60,489 bases of DNA from NCBI GenBank assembly GCA_038220425.1, contig JBBRIV010000001.1, positions 1-60,489 of the forward strand. Reading direction: 5' to 3'. The position numbers and the translations under genes were made by a program. The notes below the pieces were generated by a model. That model was not told where the DNA came from, searched no databases, and worked only from the letters and a program-made list of their open reading frames with translations. The stretch comes from Candidatus Limnocylindrales bacterium. GTDB lineage: Bacteria; Chloroflexota; Limnocylindria; Limnocylindrales; CSP1-4. Numbering within the stretch: the stretch's first letter is position 1; every line of letters starts with the position of its first letter. Of the stretch, positions 4,501 to 56,463 are shown one piece after another.

Positions 4501-4899
4501 AGCTTGATCCTGGACGTAGAGGTCGACGGCAGCCTGGCCCAGCGCGAGCCCGTCGCCGTGCCGGTTGGAGCCGGCCGCCAGGCCCGCGAGGCGGCCTTCG
4601 CGGCCGGGCCCGATTGGGGTTCGATGGGGCCGCCCGAGGAACGACCCGGGCTGGCCGTGGCCTTTGTCGGCCCTGCCGAGCCGCCGCCGGGCGACACGTT
4701 TGGCTTGAGCCGGCGCGAACGCGAAGTCCTGATCCACCTGGCCCAGGGCCGGACCAACCGGGAGATCGGCGAGCGCCTGTTCATCAGCCAGAAGACGGTC
4801 GGCGTGCACGTCGGCAACATCCTGTCGAAGCTGGGCGTATCGGGCCGGGTCGAGGCCGCTGCGGTGGCGATCCGGCTGGGACTCACCGACCGACGCTGA
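1600..4899 (+). CDS. large ATP-binding LuxR-family (LAL/MalT-like) transcriptional regulator
   Basis: 1099 aa. N-terminal FVGRERELARI + P-loop region + Walker B VLLILEDLHDAD, a long helical/TPR-like middle, and a C-terminal LuxR HTH LSRREREVLIHLAQGRTNREIGERLFISQKTVGVHVGNILSKLGV. Confidence 0.9.
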   Translation: MASKFTSARFVGRERELARIAMALEATAEGRSTTMLMAASGGVGVSRLLTETRRRLADLAEPFEVIRCRARSGRSGDPYAPVGVSITRLLDRVPDADLPALFETGAQELLRLVPDVQPRLAKLGLLPERHTTIDPERRQTRMLEAILGLVSRLGERRPVLLILEDLHDADAGTRALAAFLARVSRPGRLCVMATYQPDELTRRHPLHGALAAMADAARPPERLLLEPLRRDELARLIEGIEGERPSASVLLLVSERSQGNALVAEELLAARRELAGASLTGTLDELVVARLAGRSTECRRALRLLAPAGEPLTLEQLATASLAFEREADRPAPRSSSTPRRGGGILEADLGHGLAEALEHGFARLEGPDGDDAAHDPAVAALPAEAIVGIRHPLIARSIEADLLPGQRRRHHAALAEGLADRPGSQARHWLAAHQLGPARADAIDAATLAENVDSLADALAHLELALEIDDRTEPPGGESDPASPAGLLARAAEAAFADGRLARATAYAESAIARLDERSDRLRVGLLYERLGRYRRAAGDQTGSIAAHTRAVELVPTKPSRERALVLSALAQVRMLEGTFSEAERLASEAIKLAHTVGPEALGEEGHAICTLGISRVWGEDPEGGLALLLEARTIAFDLGRFDDLFRATANITTALDLLGRKREAVEVARAGIEAARRAGQEAVFGNYLRGNGADSLFLLGDWPASRALVATALEWSPVGVNLVNALANLVTVEIEARAGETAGRLLGRLLLELETVPDAQESVPTYQAAASFALWRGDLEDARRAVGLGWSRVRQTEDWVLVARMAGAVLEVDSASIADARAGRDLSTVASARSRSAEVLAEAEAAVEEAGVAPAFGTRREADAHLALARAYRARIEGHDEPSAWDSLARTWDDLERPYQVARARWRQAEAALGAGDGRAGRTAARAPLLEAVELAIRLGAGPLLRELEELARRALIALPQAATSSLILDVEVDGSLAQREPVAVPVGAGRQAREAAFAAGPDWGSMGPPEERPGLAVAFVGPAEPPPGDTFGLSRREREVLIHLAQGRTNREIGERLFISQKTVGVHVGNILSKLGVSGRVEAAAVAIRLGLTDRR

Positions 4900-5026
4900 C
4901 GCCCGCGTCCAAACCGCAACCCTGCCGTATCCGGCCGGGTGCCGACGCGGTGCGAACCACCGGCGCAGACTCTCCGGAGTGTCGCGCACTGTCGCGGCCG
5001 TTTCCTCGGTCCCCCGGAGGTCCCTG

Positions 5027-5257
5027 ATGATCCAACCAACCCCTCGGCCAGCCTGGCCGATCCGTCAGGCCGACCTCGCCACGGGCCCGATCACCTGCGC
5101 AATGTGCGGTTGTCGCCTGCAGGTGGATGCGTTCGAGGAGACCTGGCGCCACTTCGCCGGCAGCACCGGCCGCGACGCACGCGGTTGCCGGGTGGACTGC
5201 GTGGGCCTGGCCCATGACGCGCACGGCCGCGCCTTCGCAGGCCGCTCCGCCGGCTAG
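5027..5257 (+). CDS. small Cys-rich hypothetical protein (possible zinc-binding)
   Basis: Within ORF 4979..5257. GGAGG at 5016-5020 lies 6 nt before ATG 5027. GC3-rich codons. Motifs CAMCGC ... GCRVDC. No family recognised. Confidence 0.4.
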   Translation: MIQPTPRPAWPIRQADLATGPITCAMCGCRLQVDAFEETWRHFAGSTGRDARGCRVDCVGLAHDAHGRAFAGRSAG

Positions 5258-5489
5258 TCCACCGCCGCAGTTCTTTGCCGCCGGGCTCGGCGCGCGGCGC
5301 CCCAATTAGCGATCCGATTCTTAGCGGGTGCCTGAGGGCGCCCGAAATCTGGCGTTGAGGGTCTCGCGACCGCCCGGACCGGGCTGGGTACGCACAAATC
5401 ATGCCGGCCGGCGGGTCGGATGAGGCGCCAGGTGGGCGTCGGCTCGCTCAGGCGCTCCAGACAAGTGTGGGATTGCTAAACGCGACGGC

Positions 5490-5533
5490 GCCGCGCCGAG
5501 CTGCGCCGCCGCGCCGAGCTGCGCCGCCGCGCC
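5490..5533. repeat. 18-bp tandem repeat gccgcgccgagctgcgcc, 2.4 copies
   Basis: Units at 5490-5507 and 5508-5525 are identical; a partial third unit lies at 5526-5533. The repeat is intergenic, just 3' of the response-regulator stop (5576, minus strand). Confidence 0.9.
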
Positions 5534-5575
5534 TCGGCCCCGGCCCCGCCGCCCAGCGCCGCCCCGCCGAACGCC

Positions 5576-6274
5576 CTAGACGGCCTCGACGCGGTAACCC
5601 ACCGAGCGGACCGCCACGACCGACGGGCCGCCGGCAGACGAGACCTTGGCCCGCAGGCGAGCGAGGTGCGGCTTCAGCCAGAGCAGGTCGGGGTTCGGCT
5701 CCGAGGGCCAGCCGGCTCGAACCAGCCGGGCGTGGGGAACCACGTCGCCGCCGGCCCGGACCAGGGCCTCGAGCAGCCGATACTCGGTGGCCGTCAGGGG
5801 CAGCAGCGAATCGCCCACCCGGGCCTCGTGCCGGCCGGGCTCGATCGTCAGGTCGCCGGCCTGCAGGGCACTGCCGCCGCCAACCGGACCGCCGGCGGCA
5901 TCCACCCGGCGCATCACGGCCGCGATCCGGGCCAGGAGCTCCTGCCGGCCGAAGGGCTTGGTCAGGTAATCGTCGGCCCCGATCTCCAGGGCTCGGACCT
6001 TGGCCCCCTCGCCGCTTTCGCCGGACAGGACCAGGATGGGCACGTTGCCCGATGCCCGGATCTGGCCGGCCACGCTGAATCCGTCGGGACCGGGCATGGC
6101 CAGGTCGAGCAGGACCAGGTCGGGTGATTCTTCACGGAAGCGACGGACCGCCGTCAGGCCGTCATAGGCGGTGATCACCTGGTGACCGTCCTGGCCGACG
6201 AGGGCGGTGATCGCCCCGACCATCGCTGGGTCGTCGTCCACGACGAGGATCCGGAGTGGGCGGACGTTGGGCAT
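5576..6274 (-). CDS. OmpR/PhoB-family response regulator
   Basis: Receiver domain RILVVDDDP...DLVLLDLAMPGPDGF...ADDYLTKPF and a C-terminal winged-helix domain LTATEYRLLEALV...VRSVGYRV. Confidence 0.95.
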   Translation of the reverse strand: MPNVRPLRILVVDDDPAMVGAITALVGQDGHQVITAYDGLTAVRRFREESPDLVLLDLAMPGPDGFSVAGQIRASGNVPILVLSGESGEGAKVRALEIGADDYLTKPFGRQELLARIAAVMRRVDAAGGPVGGGSALQAGDLTIEPGRHEARVGDSLLPLTATEYRLLEALVRAGGDVVPHARLVRAGWPSEPNPDLLWLKPHLARLRAKVSSAGGPSVVAVRSVGYRVEAV

Positions 6275-6285
6275 GGCAGGTTCCT

Positions 6286-7566
6286 TCAGACGGCTACGGC
6301 GGCGGGCAACGCCAGGACAAATCGGGCACCACTGCCCGGGGCGGGCTCACACCATAGTCGGGCACCCATGGCTTCAGCCAGCCGACGAGCGGCATACAGG
6401 CCGATGCCCGAGCCCCGGGCGGTGTGCGTGTCACGTCGCGCGTACGGTTCGAAGATCCGCTCACGCCACTCGATCGGGATGCCCGGCCCTTCGTCGCTGA
6501 CGCTCAACCGAACGATTCCCTCGACCAGTGTGACGTCAACCGTGATTGTTGTATCCGGCGGTGCGTACTTGACCGCGTTCTCGATCAGGTGCTCGATGAT
6601 CTGGCGCAGCCGGGGTGGATCGGCCAGGGCGTGGCGGCGGACCTCGACGTGCTGCTCCAGGCGGTGCTGGCGGAGGAGTGGCTTGAGCTCCACGACGAGC
6701 TCCTCGAGTTGCGCGCCGACGTCGATCGGGGCGAGCTCAATCGGGCTCTCGTTGCTCGGCCGGATCGAGGCCAGGATCGAGTCGACCAGCCGATCAAGCC
6801 GGTCCACCTGGTCGATCGTGCCCTGGTACCACGCTTCGCGCTGGGCACGTCGCTCGGGGTCCCGGCTCTCCCGGCCGTCGAGGGGCGGATCGTCGGCCAG
6901 CAGGTCGGCGTAGGCCCGGACCACAGCCAGCGGCGTGCGCAGCTCGTGGGTGACCAGCGCGATCAGCTCGGTCCGGGCCTCATCCAGGCGCTGGAGGGCC
7001 ACGACCTGGGCTTCGGCGTCGCGCTGTTCGCGGCCCTTCTGGACGATCCCGGCGAGGAGGTCGGCGATTGCGCTCAGCTGGGCCGCATCTTCGGCGTTGA
7101 AGTCGCGCTGGGCCTCGGTCTGGACGTTCAGGACGCCCACGATCTGATCGTGCCAGGACAGCGGCACCGAGAGCATCGAGGCGACGTAGCGGCGCTGGTC
7201 CAGGCCGCGCACCCATAGGAAGTCCTCGTCGTGCTTGACGTCGACGACGATCTTGGCCTTCTGGCTGGCCGCCACCCGGCCGGTGACGCCCTCGCCGATG
7301 GGCACCCGGGCCCGCCCGATCTGGTAGCGGTCCAGGCCGTTGGTCGCGGCCAGGGTCAGATGGGTGCCGTCGCGATCGAGCAGGTACAGCGAGCTCACAT
7401 CGGCATGGAGCGCGTCGCGGGTCTCATCGACGATCGTCTCGAGGAGCTCGTCCCAGGTCCGGGCGGTGGTTGCCAAACGAGCCACCCGGTGCAGGAAGCG
7501 CAGCTGCTGGAGCTGATCCTCGGGCGAGTGATTCGGCGACGCGGCGGGCTTGGCCATGCCGTTCAT
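6286..7566 (-). CDS. cytoplasmic GAF-domain sensor histidine kinase
   Basis: ORF 6286..7602. GAF region, H-box THELRTPLAVV, and an HATPase region with N and G boxes (ENAVKYAP, DEGPGIP, GSGIGL). The start is taken at ATG 7566 (or 7557); the TTG at 7602 would sit inside a terminator hairpin. Confidence 0.9.
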   Translation of the reverse strand: MNGMAKPAASPNHSPEDQLQQLRFLHRVARLATTARTWDELLETIVDETRDALHADVSSLYLLDRDGTHLTLAATNGLDRYQIGRARVPIGEGVTGRVAASQKAKIVVDVKHDEDFLWVRGLDQRRYVASMLSVPLSWHDQIVGVLNVQTEAQRDFNAEDAAQLSAIADLLAGIVQKGREQRDAEAQVVALQRLDEARTELIALVTHELRTPLAVVRAYADLLADDPPLDGRESRDPERRAQREAWYQGTIDQVDRLDRLVDSILASIRPSNESPIELAPIDVGAQLEELVVELKPLLRQHRLEQHVEVRRHALADPPRLRQIIEHLIENAVKYAPPDTTITVDVTLVEGIVRLSVSDEGPGIPIEWRERIFEPYARRDTHTARGSGIGLYAARRLAEAMGARLWCEPAPGSGARFVLALPAAVAV

Positions 7567-7600
7567 GGTACGGGAGGTCCAGAAACCGGCCGCGCACAGC

Positions 7601-7634
7601 AAAAGACCCGGACGGAGGGCGTCCGGGTCTTTTG
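7601..7634. terminator. bidirectional intrinsic terminator-like hairpin
   Basis: aaaagacccggacg-gaggg-cgtccgggtctttt. An 11-bp perfect stem with a 5-nt loop, an A-tract upstream and a T-tract downstream, so it reads as a terminator on both strands. Confidence 0.7.
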
Positions 7635-7730
7635 CCTGTGGCCGTGGTTACCAGCGAGGTGGAGGGAGTCGCTGTCCCACTGCCGGGACCGTCGGACGGA
7701 TCGGGGCACCGATCCGCATGGACGTACGAG

Positions 7731-7835
7731 TCAGGACCAGCGGCGGCCGAGGGGATGATGGACAGCGAAGGCGAGCACGGCCGGCAGCACGGTTACACCG
7801 AGCAGCCAAACATGGGCCTTGATTCGATGGATCAT
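7731..7835 (-). CDS. unannotated 34-aa hydrophobic micro-protein (hypothetical)
   Basis: Below the ORF-track length cutoff. Hand translation gives MIHRIKAHVWLLGVTVLPAVLAFAVHHPLGRRWS*. GGAG lies 9 nt upstream of the ATG. One predicted TM helix. The 7601-7634 terminator follows it. Confidence 0.35.
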   Translation of the reverse strand: MIHRIKAHVWLLGVTVLPAVLAFAVHHPLGRRWS

Positions 7836-42254: not shown

Positions 42255-42862
42255 GTCGCGCGCCGGGTTCGGTGCCGGTTCGGATGGGCGCGGCGGGCAG
42301 TTGTGTCGCGGCGCGCGCAGTTGTGTCGCGGCGCGGGCCCGGTTCTTCTCGAATACCTGCCGGGGGAGTGCAAAAGCAGGAATCGGCCCCACCGGCCCCC
42401 GATTTGGCCCGGCTGGACGCGCCGCCACGCACGAATTCGCGTCGCGCGGAGCCACGGCTCGCTCGAATCGCCCACGGTTCTGATCGAGTACTACTCGGGC
42501 GAATATTCGAGAAGAAGTCGAGCCGCTCCAGACGGGCGGCCGGCACGGGCAGCCTGGACTGAGCGCAGCCGGGATCATCGGCTCGTTCTGAGTCGCGCGC
42601 TACATCGCCGGGAAGTCGCGCGTCTGAACTTCGGCGCCGGGCGGTGACTGGCAGGTAACTTGGGACCGCCCGGCGTTCCTGTGCCTGCCACCGGGCGTGA
42701 GCGAGCCCAAACTTCACAGCTGCAACAACTGGCTACCACGCTCAGAATCGCTCAAACCTTGAACATTCGTTCACCAGATCGCGGAACGGCCTGATAGACT
42801 CTGGCCCGGCCGGCCGTTCCTGGCCGCCGCCGTCGGATACCGCAGCTGGAGTCAGGCCCCGC

Positions 42863-52635: not shown

Positions 52636-52749
52636 CGGCCCGAGTCTGACCGATGGGCAGGCCCCTCGCAAGGTGGAACCCGGCCAATGAAAAGGACGGG
52701 TGCCTCGCGACACCCGTCCTGTGCGACCGGCCGGGCGTTCCGGCCCAGA

Positions 52750-53019
52750 TCAGGCTTGGCTGGTGAACCAGACCGAAGGGGCACCCTCGACGCCGGCGTC
52801 GTGCATCGCCGCGCCCAGCTCGGGGCTGCTGCCGAAGGCCTGGGCGGCCGCCAGGGATGCGAACTCGTGGCGGACCGTGATGTCATTCGGGTTGTCGATC
52901 GCCTGGTAGACGGCCTGGTCCTGGACGCCCAACCTCTCTTGGGTGGGGCCGAAGGCATCGTAGACCTGGCGCCACTTGGCGTAGTCCGCGACCTGATGCC
53001 GAACGAAGAGCGTGGTCAT
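52750..53019 (-). CDS. small dimeric alpha/beta-barrel (ABM-like) protein
   Basis: 89 aa, MTTLFVRHQVADYAKWRQVYD...ITVRHEFASLAAAQAF. Divergent from the MarR gene. Confidence 0.65.
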   Translation of the reverse strand: MTTLFVRHQVADYAKWRQVYDAFGPTQERLGVQDQAVYQAIDNPNDITVRHEFASLAAAQAFGSSPELGAAMHDAGVEGAPSVWFTSQA

Positions 53020-53097
53020 CGTGATGCCTCCGATTGGACCAGGGCACGTTGGTGCGCTGCTGGTTTGTGGAGAGATCCTGTCACCGAAGTGTCTGTT

Positions 53098-53634
53098 ATG
53101 TCAACTACTTATTTGTCAAATGTTGCCAAGTCAGGAGAAACAGGGTACGGTCTGCTCGTGACAAACGACGAAGACGCAAGCCGGCCAGCCACCCTCTGGA
53201 ACGACGCCTGGCGGGGCGTGCTGTTCGCGGCATCACGTACGCTCCAGGCGGCCGAGCCGGACCTCATCGCCCAGGCGGGATTTCCGCTGACCTGGCTTGA
53301 CGTCCTGGCCCAGCTGCACGACGCGGCCGAAGACGGCCTGCGGATGCAGGAGCTGGAACAGCGCTCGCTGTTCACACGGAGCGGGCTGACGCGCCTGATT
53401 GACCGGATCGAGGCCGCCGGACTGGTCCGGCGCGAAGCGGTCCAGGGCGATCGCCGGGGCGTCCGGGTGCTCCTGACCGAGGAGGGTCGCCGGCGCCATG
53501 ACGCCGCCTTCATCGACCACAACAAGGTGATCGAGCGCACCTTCGGGCAACGCTTGACCCAACGTCAGCTCAAGGCCGTGGCCGAGGCCCTGGCCACGTT
53601 CTGGCACGACGATCAGCCGCCGGTTGAGGGCTAG
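53098..53634 (+). CDS. MarR-family transcriptional regulator
   Basis: Within ORF 52687..53634. Winged HTH LRMQELEQRSLFTRSGLTRLIDRIEAAGLVRREAVQGDRRGVRVLLTEEG. The start is uncertain: ATG at 53098 lies in an AT-rich patch, and GTG at 53158 is an alternative. Confidence 0.85.
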   Translation: MSTTYLSNVAKSGETGYGLLVTNDEDASRPATLWNDAWRGVLFAASRTLQAAEPDLIAQAGFPLTWLDVLAQLHDAAEDGLRMQELEQRSLFTRSGLTRLIDRIEAAGLVRREAVQGDRRGVRVLLTEEGRRRHDAAFIDHNKVIERTFGQRLTQRQLKAVAEALATFWHDDQPPVEG

Positions 53635-53682
53635 CCCGAGTCACACTCGGCCGGTTGTCGAGTATCGTGAAGCCCGGTCAGG

Positions 53683-53759
53683 CGGGGCGTAGCGAAGTTT
53701 GGCATCGCGCGTGCTTTGGGAGCACGAGATCGTGGGTTCGAATCCCGCCGCCCCGACCA
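53683..53759 (+). tRNA. tRNA-Pro, anticodon TGG, CCA encoded
   Basis: Hand-folded. Acceptor stem 53683-53689/53749-53755 (C1-G72), D stem 53692-95/53705-08, anticodon stem 53710-14/53722-26. Loop is tttggga with the anticodon at 53717-53719. T arm is 53732-36 + ttcgaat + 53744-48, A73, CCA 53757-59. Confidence 0.92.
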
Positions 53760-53771
53760 ATCCCGTCCCCG
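53749..53771 (+). repeat. direct repeat copy 1 (3' acceptor strand of tRNA-Pro + ACCA + 12 nt), att-like
   Basis: cgccccgaccaatcccgtccccg, identical to 53995-54017. Confidence 0.95.
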
Positions 53772-53829
53772 GCCGCCGAACCTTCGGCTCCCGACCCACG
53801 GCCCCAACCCGCGGCTGCCGGCGCCGTGT

Positions 53830-53973
53830 CTTGACAGATATCGCCACCAGCCGCTGTATGTTTGGTCGACTGCTCGGAATCCTGGTTCGGATCCGTCCAG
53901 CGGAGACGTCCGTGCACGAATCGACCCGCTCAGCGCTGGACCCACGCCGCTGCTGGGCACGGTATCTGACAAG
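53830..53973 (+). repeat. inverted-repeat-bounded element, copy A (decayed, 144 bp)
   Basis: Ends cttgacagata / tatctgacaag (10/11 complementary). Aligns along its length with 55483-55651. Shares the identical 18-mer ccgtgcacgaatcgaccc. Lacks about 25 nt that are present in copy B. Confidence 0.8.
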
Positions 53974-53994
53974 GAATTCGCGTTTCGCGGTCCT

Positions 53995-54017
53995 CGCCCC
54001 GACCAATCCCGTCCCCG
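53995..54017 (+). repeat. direct repeat copy 2 of the tRNA-Pro 3' end, att-like
   Basis: Exact 23/23 match to 53749-53771. The flanking bases differ on both sides. Confidence 0.95.
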
Positions 54018-54031
54018 CCTCTGACCGCCAG

Positions 54032-54913
54032 TCAGGGCAGGGCTGTGATCGTCAGGTCCAGGCTGCCGGTCAGTGACCGCCGGAAGTGGCCGGCACCGTC
54101 CAACTGGGCAATCAGGTGGGCACCAGCGGTCCGCTGCGATGGATACGCGAGGTAGCTCGAAGCCCCGCCGATCGGGTGGCCCATCCAGATCTGGCGAGCC
54201 GTGCTCTTCGTGGTGAACATCGCGCTCAGGATGTAGCTGACGTCGCCGTACGGTTCGGCGAAGACCGCCTTGGCACCCACGGCCAGGAACCCGGCTGCGA
54301 AGTTCTGGATCCGCTGTCGACCGGCCGCGACCGTTGGCCAGGCCCGGCCGGGCTCCGAGTTGCCCGCCGTGTAACACATGCCGCGCAGGATCACGACCGC
54401 ATTCGGGGCAAGGTGGATCGCCGCCCGGATGAAGTTGGCACCGTAGTAGACAAGGTTCAGGTTGCCGGCATTGGCGGTGCCATTGAGGCCCAGGCCGTCC
54501 TTGGTGTTCTCCTGGTACGGGCCCCAGGGGCTGGGCCAGCCGTTACCGTGGCCCATGTCGATCAGGATGTTGGCCCCCTGGGCCGCGCTGACCACCCGAC
54601 GCCAGGTCGCGCCCGGGCTATACAACTCGATCACGGTCGCGCCGTAGCTGCGCAATTGGGCGGCCAACTGGCGGGCGTTGACGATGTTCTGGGCGGTGCC
54701 CGTGCCCGAAGGTCCAACGATGATGACGGCCCGCATCGGGGCGACGGCAACTGCAGGTGTGATGGCCGAGGTTGTTCCGGCCGGGCTCGACGCCGCGACG
54801 GTTGGCACGCTGCTAAGGCCGCCGACTCCGACCAGGGCGACGGCCAGGGTGAGCGCCCGTGCGCCCGTGAACAGGGTTGACGCCCGATGGGCGCCGTTGG
54901 CGAACCAACCCAA
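54032..54913 (-). CDS. secreted hypothetical protein, His/Cys (clan-CD peptidase-like) motif family, paralogue 2
   Basis: TTG start at 54913 with GAGGAGG 7 nt upstream. Signal peptide. Motifs VIIVGP, ILIDMGHGNGWPSP, QENTKDGLGLN, AVVILRGMCYTAGNSE. Confidence 0.8.
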   Translation of the reverse strand: MGWFANGAHRASTLFTGARALTLAVALVGVGGLSSVPTVAASSPAGTTSAITPAVAVAPMRAVIIVGPSGTGTAQNIVNARQLAAQLRSYGATVIELYSPGATWRRVVSAAQGANILIDMGHGNGWPSPWGPYQENTKDGLGLNGTANAGNLNLVYYGANFIRAAIHLAPNAVVILRGMCYTAGNSEPGRAWPTVAAGRQRIQNFAAGFLAVGAKAVFAEPYGDVSYILSAMFTTKSTARQIWMGHPIGGASSYLAYPSQRTAGAHLIAQLDGAGHFRRSLTGSLDLTITALP

Positions 54914-55075
54914 TGTCCTGCCTCCTCACTGCCAGAACGCCGTGGCATCGCGGCGACGTCGGGGATGGGTCACCTGGACCCGGGATGGCGCGCAGGGCGC
55001 CGTTCGGTCAAGTCTGGACGTGAAACTGGAACCGTGCCACGAACGTTGGTACTCAACCGCCCCCGACCATCGGGC

Positions 55076-55390
55076 TCAGCCGCGGATGGCCAGGACGATC
55101 GCCACGACGCCGAAGACGCCGATCACCACGCCCGAGACGACGTTGATGCCGCGCAGGATGGCCGGCGTGATCCGCGACCTGAATGCCGCCACGAGGCTGG
55201 TCAGGACGATCCACCAGGTGCCCGAACCGGCAAAGACGCCGACGGTCATGAGGTCCGCCTCGATGGGCGACCGGTTGCTGATCCCCAGACCGGCAAACAG
55301 GGCGGCGAAGGACAGGATCGTCAGCGGGTTGGTCAGGGTCAGGCCCAGGACCGACAGATAGGCGCCGGCCAGGCCGCCTCGGCGTGGAGT
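55076..55390 (-). pseudogene. 5'-truncated LysE/RhtB-family amino-acid exporter (C-terminal ~100 aa only)
   Basis: The last ~100 aa of ORF 55076..55756 (GLAGAYLSVLGLTLTNPLTILSFAALFAGLG...VVSGVVIGVFGVVAIVLAI) match the second half of LysE-family proteins. The upstream ~125 aa of the ORF are non-homologous read-through across element B. Confidence 0.55.
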
Positions 55391-55482
55391 GGTCGTCGCG
55401 GCGGCGCCGGGCCGAGGCTGGTGGTGACAATCTGACGAAATCCGGCCCACGAGGCCGCCGTCGCACGTCGGCCGCTCGTGTT

Positions 55483-55651
55483 CTTGACACATACCGCCAC
55501 CAGCCGCCGTATGGTCGGTCGACGGCTCGGTCTCCTGCTTCGGAGCCGTCCGGTGGAGACGCCCGTGCACGAATCGACCCACTCGGCGCCCGGTCCACGC
55601 GGGATTCGGGGTTCGAACGACCATAACGCGGCTGGTGGCGGTATCTAGCAA
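55483..55651 (+). repeat. inverted-repeat-bounded element, copy B (intact, 169 bp)
   Basis: Arm 55491-55514 (ataccgccaccagccgccgtatgg) is 22/24 complementary to 55621-55644 (ccataacgcggctggtggcggtat). Internal hairpin 55528-55548. No ORF with coding character. Confidence 0.8.
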
Positions 55652-55824
55652 TTTGGCCGCGTCGGGCGCCGCCGGCACCGCGCTCCGGCACCGCGCCCCG
55701 GCCCCGGCCCCGGAGCCGCCCCCCGTGCGGGCCCCGCGCCGGGCTCGCGGTACCACTCCGCGGCGGGCTGCCCCGTACGATCGGCCCGGTCGCCGGCTGG
55801 ACGTGGCAGGGTAGGATCGGTCCG

Positions 55825-56463
55825 ATGCGCAATTCTCGACTCAGCGCGCTCGTGCTTGGTGCTGCCCTGCTGGCTGCCGCCTGCGGCTCGACGCCGGCCA
55901 GCGCCACCCCCTCGATTACGCCGGCGCCGCCAACCGCCACGCCCAATCCGCACCTGAGCGAGCCCGCCTCGGTCGATGCCGTCTACAACGCCTTGATCAA
56001 GGCCGGCCTCCAGATCTCGCCGAACTCGGCCGACACCGGCACGGGCGGGGGCATGGTCAAGCGCCTGCACCTGACCTACCAGGCCTGGCCGCTGGTCCTG
56101 ACCGAGTTCACGAGTGGCAAGGCCCTGCTGGCCACGACCGGCTTCAATCCCAAGGCCAGGCCGGTCCTGGGCGATCCGCCCTACGCGATCGTCGGCCTGA
56201 ACATCCTGATGGAATACGGCTCGAGCACCCAGAACGGCCCGCCGGCGGCGCCTGCGCCACAGTTCGTCACGGCGATCGCGCAGATCGTCGCGGTCTTGGA
56301 CCCCCTCATCGGCCCGCTCCAGCAGCGATCGGTGACCCCGACCTCGCTGCCAACGCCCACACCCGCACCCACCCTGGCCCCGACTCCGACGCCCGCACCG
56401 TCCGGCGGCAAGCCCACCGCCAAGCCAACTACCAAGCCCAAGCCGAGCCCGTCCAAGAAGTAG
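55825..56463 (+). CDS. lipoprotein, function unknown, Pro/Thr/Lys-rich C-terminal tail
   Basis: Signal peptide and lipobox LAAACGS. Tail PTPTPAPTLAPTPTPAPSGGKPTAKPTTKPKPSPSKK. Confidence 0.7.
   Translation: MRNSRLSALVLGAALLAAACGSTPASATPSITPAPPTATPNPHLSEPASVDAVYNALIKAGLQISPNSADTGTGGGMVKRLHLTYQAWPLVLTEFTSGKALLATTGFNPKARPVLGDPPYAIVGLNILMEYGSSTQNGPPAAPAPQFVTAIAQIVAVLDPLIGPLQQRSVTPTSLPTPTPAPTLAPTPTPAPSGGKPTAKPTTKPKPSPSKK

Follow-up and report, generated by a model that had tools for sequence, protein, structure and literature searches.

A family of arm-bounded palindromic repeats, candidate mobile elements, near a tRNA-Pro gene of a Limnocylindrales bacterium

The window, that is, the whole 60-kb stretch of DNA analysed here (60,489 nt of contig JBBRIV010000001.1 from a Candidatus Limnocylindrales bacterium, 70% G+C), contains two copies, A and B, of a short non-coding element bounded by long inverted arms. 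Copy A follows a tRNA-Pro gene and copy B precedes a lipoprotein gene, with a gene for a secreted protein and a truncated LysE-family gene lying between the two copies (Table 1). [quoted passage not shown] The observation on the pair is partly confirmed and the interpretation partly supported: the family is wider than A and B, and its favoured reading, to which a probability of about 0.55 is given, is a lineage-restricted, mobile, non-autonomous palindromic repeat resembling MITEs and REPINs (hairpin-forming doublets of repetitive extragenic palindromes, REPs).

Two founding copies

As had been noted, copies A and B share one orientation; they lie at a distance of 1,653 bp and align with 100 of 119 positions identical (84%, E = 5e-34) and an additional 25-nt match at the right end beyond the 119-nt alignment. 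The blocks described as identical in both copies (cgccaccagccgc, ggtcgac and an 18-mer) are all present, and the homology breaks off abruptly at the outer arm boundaries, at 53829/55482 on the left and 53973/55651 on the right. The arms of B, which are 39 nt long and 85% complementary, rank first among the inverted repeats (within 160 bp) of the entire window; the sub-block complementary at 22 of 24 positions, on which the earlier description relied, is correct. In A, the outer 11 nt are complementary at 10 positions, and 26 nt present in B are absent, among them the inner portion of the right arm, both in agreement with what had been claimed. A hidden Markov model (HMM) of the arms recognizes the left arm of A with 38.5 bits, and the right-arm remnant (53946–53973) weakly (E = 0.18). 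The lack of coding potential was upheld when peptides from all six frames of B were compared with 5.8 billion proteins and gave no match. B had also been placed against the truncation point of the LysE gene; this is wrong, and the sequence that adjoins the truncation is instead a 28-nt remnant, X, of another element.

Six members with two arm types

The search for further copies that had been proposed was run and found them in two other metagenome contigs, so that the family comprises six members: A, B and X in the window, C and E on L027, a contig of the Joint Genome Institute (JGI), and D on L065. Copy C was found by an arm-pattern scan of JGI metagenomes, which returned ten loci, one of them a true relative; L065 was reached through homologues of the window’s lipoprotein, and X and E were picked up by the arm HMM built with D included. 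Candidate inverted repeats in L048 and L049 proved unrelated to the family. The six-frame peptide search of B likewise revealed no copy hidden inside called open reading frames (ORFs), and a literature search for the arm sequence yielded irrelevant results only. Exact look-ups of five window proteins found AsnC alone recorded, on contigs of 1–2 kb that stop short of the elements.

Members measure approximately 170–185 bp (range 144–186, with decayed A at 144) and consist of inverted arms of approximately 36–40 bp around an interior of approximately 105–117 bp. The arms of B, C and D are 37–39 nt long and 84–85% complementary, and the left arm of C is identical to that of B at 33 of 35 positions. 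There are two arm types, B-type (A, B and C) and D-type (D, E and X), and within any one element both arms belong to one type: the left and right arms match at 20 of 22 positions in D and at 17 of 22 in E, compared with 9–15 of 22 between types. More than one matched state is found in 9 of the 22 outer columns, including a 2-nt indel that is mirrored in both arms. B and C share the same left/right asymmetries, at column 5 and at the first variable base before TATGG, which suggests that their arms come from one imperfect common master. Mismatches between paired arms are mainly transversions, and G–U pairs are in excess on neither strand. Remnant X, the HMM match of which is weak if taken alone (E = 0.49), is identical to each arm of D at 16 of 22 positions, against 7–11 of 22 for the B-type arms.

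The members are clustered, X being followed 42 bp further on by B, and E 114 bp further on by C. At both of these loci (window 55414–55652 and L027 2157–2628) a D-type element comes first and a B-type element second in the direction leading away from the start of a minus-strand gene, a pairing that could be due to chance or could mark a composite unit.

The interiors keep their length (105 nt in B, 107 in C, 105 in D and 117 in E) but vary in sequence. Homology is confined to A, B and the reverse complement of E, with 30 of 39 positions identical at the same offset and a shared GGATTCGGGG block; the interiors of C and D match no other member in either orientation, and a profile search gave no support to the C interior being an inverted B interior. 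The grouping by arm type therefore disagrees with that by interior lineage, as E combines D-type arms with an A/B-type interior and C combines B-type arms with an unrelated one.

Whole elements are predicted to fold strongly, with z-scores of −5.4 on the plus strand and −6.9 on the minus strand for B, −5.75 for C and −5.1 for D, and the two strands fold about equally. In B this strength comes entirely from the arms. Interiors alone fold like shuffled sequences (z from −1.6 to +0.6), and the spacers form no hairpin; single arms are non-palindromic and likewise fold like shuffles (z from −0.96 to +1.37).

Table 1 Features of the tRNA-Pro–lipoprotein region and members of the repeat family
Feature	Location	Strand	Remarks
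tRNA-Pro(UGG)	53683–53759	+	ARAGORN and Rfam
Direct repeat, copy 1	53749–53771	+	Exact 23-mer: last 11 nt of tRNA-Pro and 12 nt downstream
Copy A	53830–53973	+	Decayed B-type element, 144 nt
Direct repeat, copy 2	53995–54017	+	With copy 1 brackets 223 bp holding A
Secreted-protein gene	54032–54913	−	293 aa; between A and B; syntenic homologues between tRNA-Pro and LysE in L066 and L067
LysE-family fragment	55076–55412	−	Pseudogene, C-terminal half only; Pfam LysE profile positions 99–190 of 193
Remnant X	55414–55440	+	28 nt; right arm of a D-type element, remainder deleted
Copy B	55483–55652	+	Intact B-type element, 170 nt; arms 55484–55522 and 55613–55651; interior ~105 nt
Lipoprotein gene	55825–56463	+	Follows B after 173 bp; divergent from LysE in relatives
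Copy E	L027 2157–2342		Upstream of C
Copy C	L027 2457–2628		172 nt; both arms present
Copy D	L065 540–713		174 nt; 38-nt arms at 84%; LysE–lipoprotein intergenic region

The locus in related genomes

The closest relative, L065, is approximately 87% identical to the window at the nucleotide level in the flanking genes, and L066 and L067 are 73–77% identical. The gene order in L066 and L067 is tRNA-Pro, the secreted-protein gene (−), an intact LysE gene of 205 aa (−) and the lipoprotein gene (+), with MarR also upstream in L067. The spacers in these two genomes, of approximately 100–120 bp between LysE and the lipoprotein gene and approximately 80–107 bp after tRNA-Pro, contain no element. As the secreted-protein gene and LysE are syntenic in L066 and L067, they are ancestral and not cargo. 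MarR, tRNA-Pro and LysE are also kept in L051, in which five other genes lie between tRNA-Pro and LysE: PadR, PspC, a 54-aa ORF, bPH_2/SHOCT and VanY (4571–7802) replace the secreted-protein gene, which marks the region downstream of tRNA-Pro as a variable spot.

The presence of elements thus differs between related genomes, L066 and L067 having none and L065 lacking B. In L065, D sits where the window has X. Compared with L065, L066 and L067, in which the LysE gene is intact, the window loses LysE homology at 55400–55414, and the next 28 nt are X. Aligned together with its downstream flank, X matches the right arm of D and its flank at 30 of 37 positions, a score reached by 1 of 500 shuffles, whereas alignment of the same junction to the LysE 5′ end is poorer, its score being reached by 19 of 500 shuffles. 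B was accordingly rejected as the orthologue of D in favour of X, so that a D-type element lay upstream of LysE in the ancestor shared by the window and L065. The deletion that destroyed LysE ends inside this element; approximately 470 bp were lost in the window lineage, comprising the 5′ half of LysE and most of the D-type element. On the right of B, positions 55672–55715 hold G+C-rich short tandem repeats (CCGGCACCGCGCY twice, then three tandem CCCCGG units), which are not found in L065.

Copy A lies within an att-like duplication of tRNA-Pro, as had been proposed: an exact 23-bp direct repeat, of a kind for which no occurrence is expected by chance, brackets the copy. One repeat copy and the 223 bp between the repeats form a 246-bp unit that looks like an att-flanked remnant of an integrative element, of the kind known as a cis-mobilizable element (CIME). 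At tRNA-Pro, neither the second repeat copy nor an element is present in L066, L067 or L051, and the flanking repeat of a tRNA 3′ end found for A is absent for B, C, D and E. The suggestion of an integrative element suits the surroundings of A alone, the other copies having no such repeat. Just past tRNA-Pro, at 53760–53780, ATCCCGTCCCCGGCCGCCGAA and the arm core ATACCGCCACCAGCCGCCGTA agree at 16 of 21 positions; with four non-element matches in a pattern search against approximately two expected, this resemblance may be due to chance.

Two observations concern other parts of the window. The longest ORF at 52687–53634 (315 aa) overcalls the MarR gene, the homologues of which are 176–183 aa long and cover the C-terminal 57% only. 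In the 600-bp Ham1–LytR intergenic region (42255–42862) there are two tandem copies of CAGTTGTGTCGCGGCGCG (42298–42335), TTCTGAGTCGCGCGC occurs at both 42250 and 42588, and 40-nt arms at 42330–42369 and 42490–42529 form an inverted repeat at 70%; the region is unrelated to the A/B family.

A proposed mobile repeat and its alternatives

Among the options raised earlier, the MITE-like one fits, the copies having sharp, arm-defined boundaries and no coding signal, occurring in other contigs and being present or absent between relatives. Taken together, boundaries set by the arms, non-coding content, occurrence in three assemblies, presence and absence between relatives, tandem clustering, decay and a deletion with one end inside a copy are what is seen in small non-autonomous repeats of the MITE kind (PMC10969869), and the MITE-like reading is the best supported. 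It is the lack of an element at the same sites in related genomes that points to the behaviour of a mobile repeat rather than to that of an RNA or a promoter cassette.

Under the favoured reading, the arms would be the functional part, recognized in trans by an enzyme encoded elsewhere, and the interior would be passenger sequence. Copies would land in intergenic DNA, often beside an earlier copy, and then decay in place. Because none of the copies is flanked by a target duplication, cleavage that leaves no staggered ends is favoured over the action of a DDE transposase; it might be carried out by an HUH/tyrosine single-strand transposase of the RAYT kind (REP-associated tyrosine transposase) or the TIRYT kind (its counterpart associated with terminal inverted repeats, TIRs), or by a site-specific recombinase. 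An unlikely version is that the arms act as a folded hairpin, in which the transposase or recombinase would read structure and a few bases. This would explain why the arms change in step, with the mirrored 2-nt indel, while the interior is kept between B and E, and also why target duplications are missing and the interior keeps its length and not its sequence. If true, it would amount to a REPIN-like system in which the 36-nt arms are not palindromic and the spacer is fixed at approximately 105 nt, in Chloroflexota, where, to our knowledge, none has been described.

MITEs such as the Correia elements (CREE) of Neisseria and ERIC of enterobacteria are non-coding, 100–200 bp long and bounded by long imperfect TIRs (PMC10969869). 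The A/B family resembles them in size, intergenic location, clustering or nesting, decayed copies, strain-to-strain presence and absence, and gene disruption (PMC10969869). It differs in having no detectable target duplication, which in Correia elements is TA, and no known parent insertion sequence; furthermore, the promoter-like hexamers in its arms are 20–22 nt apart and not conserved, and its host is an uncultivated lineage of high G+C content. REPINs have conserved inverted ends, no hybrid arms, and a spacer that is variable in sequence but of characteristic length, for example 110 bp in the group II REPINs of P. fluorescens (PMC3337134). With the REPIN/RAYT and TIRYT TIR families the A/B family shares inverted ends, the absence of hybrids between groups, the absence of target duplications and tandem clusters (PMC3337134; PMC3733652). 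Several of its features are closer to REPINs and to the TIRs flanking TIRYT genes (PMC3337134; PMC3733652), namely the want of target duplications, the concerted change of paired arms, the lack of hybrids and an interior constant in length but not in sequence. It was nevertheless not filed with REPINs, because its arms are not palindromes, and hence not REPs, and its spacers form no hairpins; in addition, the GTAG tag is absent, a CGTC string occurs only in the D-type arms, and no RAYT or TIRYT gene was seen among the 39 window ORFs scanned.

Two other known systems are less close. The 246-bp unit around A, which has the tRNA 3′ end exactly repeated at its flanks and contains no recombination gene, resembles CIMEs, but the likeness holds for A only and the repeat family is independent of tRNA sites. 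Integron attC sites also combine imperfect inverted repeats and conserved ends with a centre that varies, and their arm mismatches too are conserved; their ends, however, are of opposite polarity (5′-RYYYAAC...GTTRRRY-3′, compared with CTTGACA...TGNCAAG here), the interior of the A/B family is not self-complementary, and the gene separating A from B has syntenic counterparts in relatives and so is not a cassette.

Several results weigh against mobility or a wider spread of the family. None of the five full copies (A, B, C, D and E) has a direct repeat abutting it, although the copies are old and target duplications may have been lost by decay. The TIR-pattern scan of JGI metagenomes gave only one further contig with a true copy, and a scan of 185,579 GTDB genomes with the 18-mer gave 20 matches, all due to chance and none agreeing beyond the seed. 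Searches of plasmids and phages by blastn with B and the arm consensus returned nothing or chance matches, and pattern scans of IMG/VR returned merely coincidences in coding sequence. The three window copies all lie within 1.8 kb, and approximately 100 kb of sequence from more distant relatives holds none. Flanks are too diverged for clean empty sites, and deletion in the relatives could account for the differences in place of insertion; B, likewise, may have arrived in the window lineage or disappeared from L065. Finally, a Pfam scan of 39 of the approximately 52 large ORFs of the window found regulators, transporters, and cell-wall and sugar-nucleotide enzymes, and no transposase, integrase, invertase, HUH enzyme or RAYT.

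The foremost rival, though an improbable one, is an invertible DNA switch or a pair of recombinase sites, at which a recombinase encoded elsewhere would flip the interior of approximately 105 bp and alter the expression of neighbouring genes. Conserved arms with left- and right-specific differences around interiors of kept length and varied sequence would suit it, as would the homology of the E interior to A and B solely as the reverse complement and the position of D, of E with C and of X with B upstream of gene starts (LysE and lipoprotein, or lyase). The arms of E, however, are too symmetric to tell whether its interior has flipped relative to them, A lies between a tRNA 3′ end and the 3′ end of a convergent gene and thus has no promoter target, and the scanned window ORFs include no recombinase. 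There is also no sigma-70-like promoter within A or B, and absence from syntenic loci suits insertion better than a fixed switch. The inward-facing promoter-like strings pointed out earlier, TTGACA and TATGGT, are separated by 20 nt and not by 18 as stated. In D-type arms the hexamer spacing is 22 nt and the first hexamer is TTGGTC or TTCGTC, so that the −35 hexamer is not conserved. A sigma-70 scan of 53600–55900 found neither a promoter site nor a terminator, and a MerR-type promoter with a long spacer was ruled out, as the spacer lacks a dyad and the −35 hexamer is not kept in D-type arms.

Quite improbable is the possibility that the arms are immobile paired binding sites for a host DNA-binding protein, held at a fixed spacing and arisen or spread locally. 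Conservation of arm sequence and of arm-to-arm distance with free interiors, and the absence of target duplications, would be compatible with such sites. The whole unit of approximately 170 bp, interior included, is nevertheless common to A, B and E across two organisms, the units are missing from syntenic loci, and they have no neighbouring gene in common.

Equally doubtful is a structured non-coding RNA, either a small RNA or a cis-acting hairpin, of which the inverted repeat would be a selected long closing helix. It draws on the strong predicted folding of B, C and D, on the covariation of arms between types at 9 of 22 outer columns, and on the precedent of the MITEs ERIC and Correia, which act as RNA hairpins when transcribed (PMC10969869). 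Against it, the interiors are unconserved across the family and fold like shuffles, arm mismatches show the preponderance of transversions described above with no G–U excess, both strands fold about equally, and neither promoter nor terminator was found. The internal hairpin that had been taken as a hint of selection fared unevenly: the double change from A–U to C–G is real, and RNAalifold finds two such pairs, but they are at chance level. In 300 trials in which A was replaced by copies of B carrying an equal number of random substitutions, RNAalifold found one or more compensatory pairs in 81% and two or more in 48%, so that the change is not evidence of selection. No Rfam counterpart had been recognized earlier, and a scan of Rfam found at gathering score the two tRNAs only, with no relevant match at E ≤ 10 for the region or at E ≤ 1 on L065 and L027. 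A tRNA-like reading of the B block GGTTCGAA was rejected, since neither ARAGORN nor Rfam finds a tRNA there and the flanking bases cannot form a T-stem.

Least probable of all is that A and B are the ends of a degraded, CIME-like island that used tRNA-Pro, for although the exact repeat brackets A and the tRNA-Pro–LysE region differs between relatives, with five other genes in L051, copies B, C, D and E adjoin neither a tRNA nor a direct repeat, the A–B segment is no island given the ancestral gene between the copies and LysE, the A/B homology is limited to the arm-bounded unit, and no integrase is among the scanned ORFs.

Although the finding opens no long-standing question, the reading of the family as a mobile palindromic repeat would, if right, add a small and so far uncatalogued mobile repeat to an uncultivated lineage of soil and freshwater bacteria. 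For annotation, the elements account for the LysE pseudogene and for spurious ORFs, and may serve as a strain marker. The mosaic in which arm types and interiors are combined, the constant length of the interior and the lack of target duplications are mildly unusual, and could point to hairpin-dependent transposition outside Proteobacteria.

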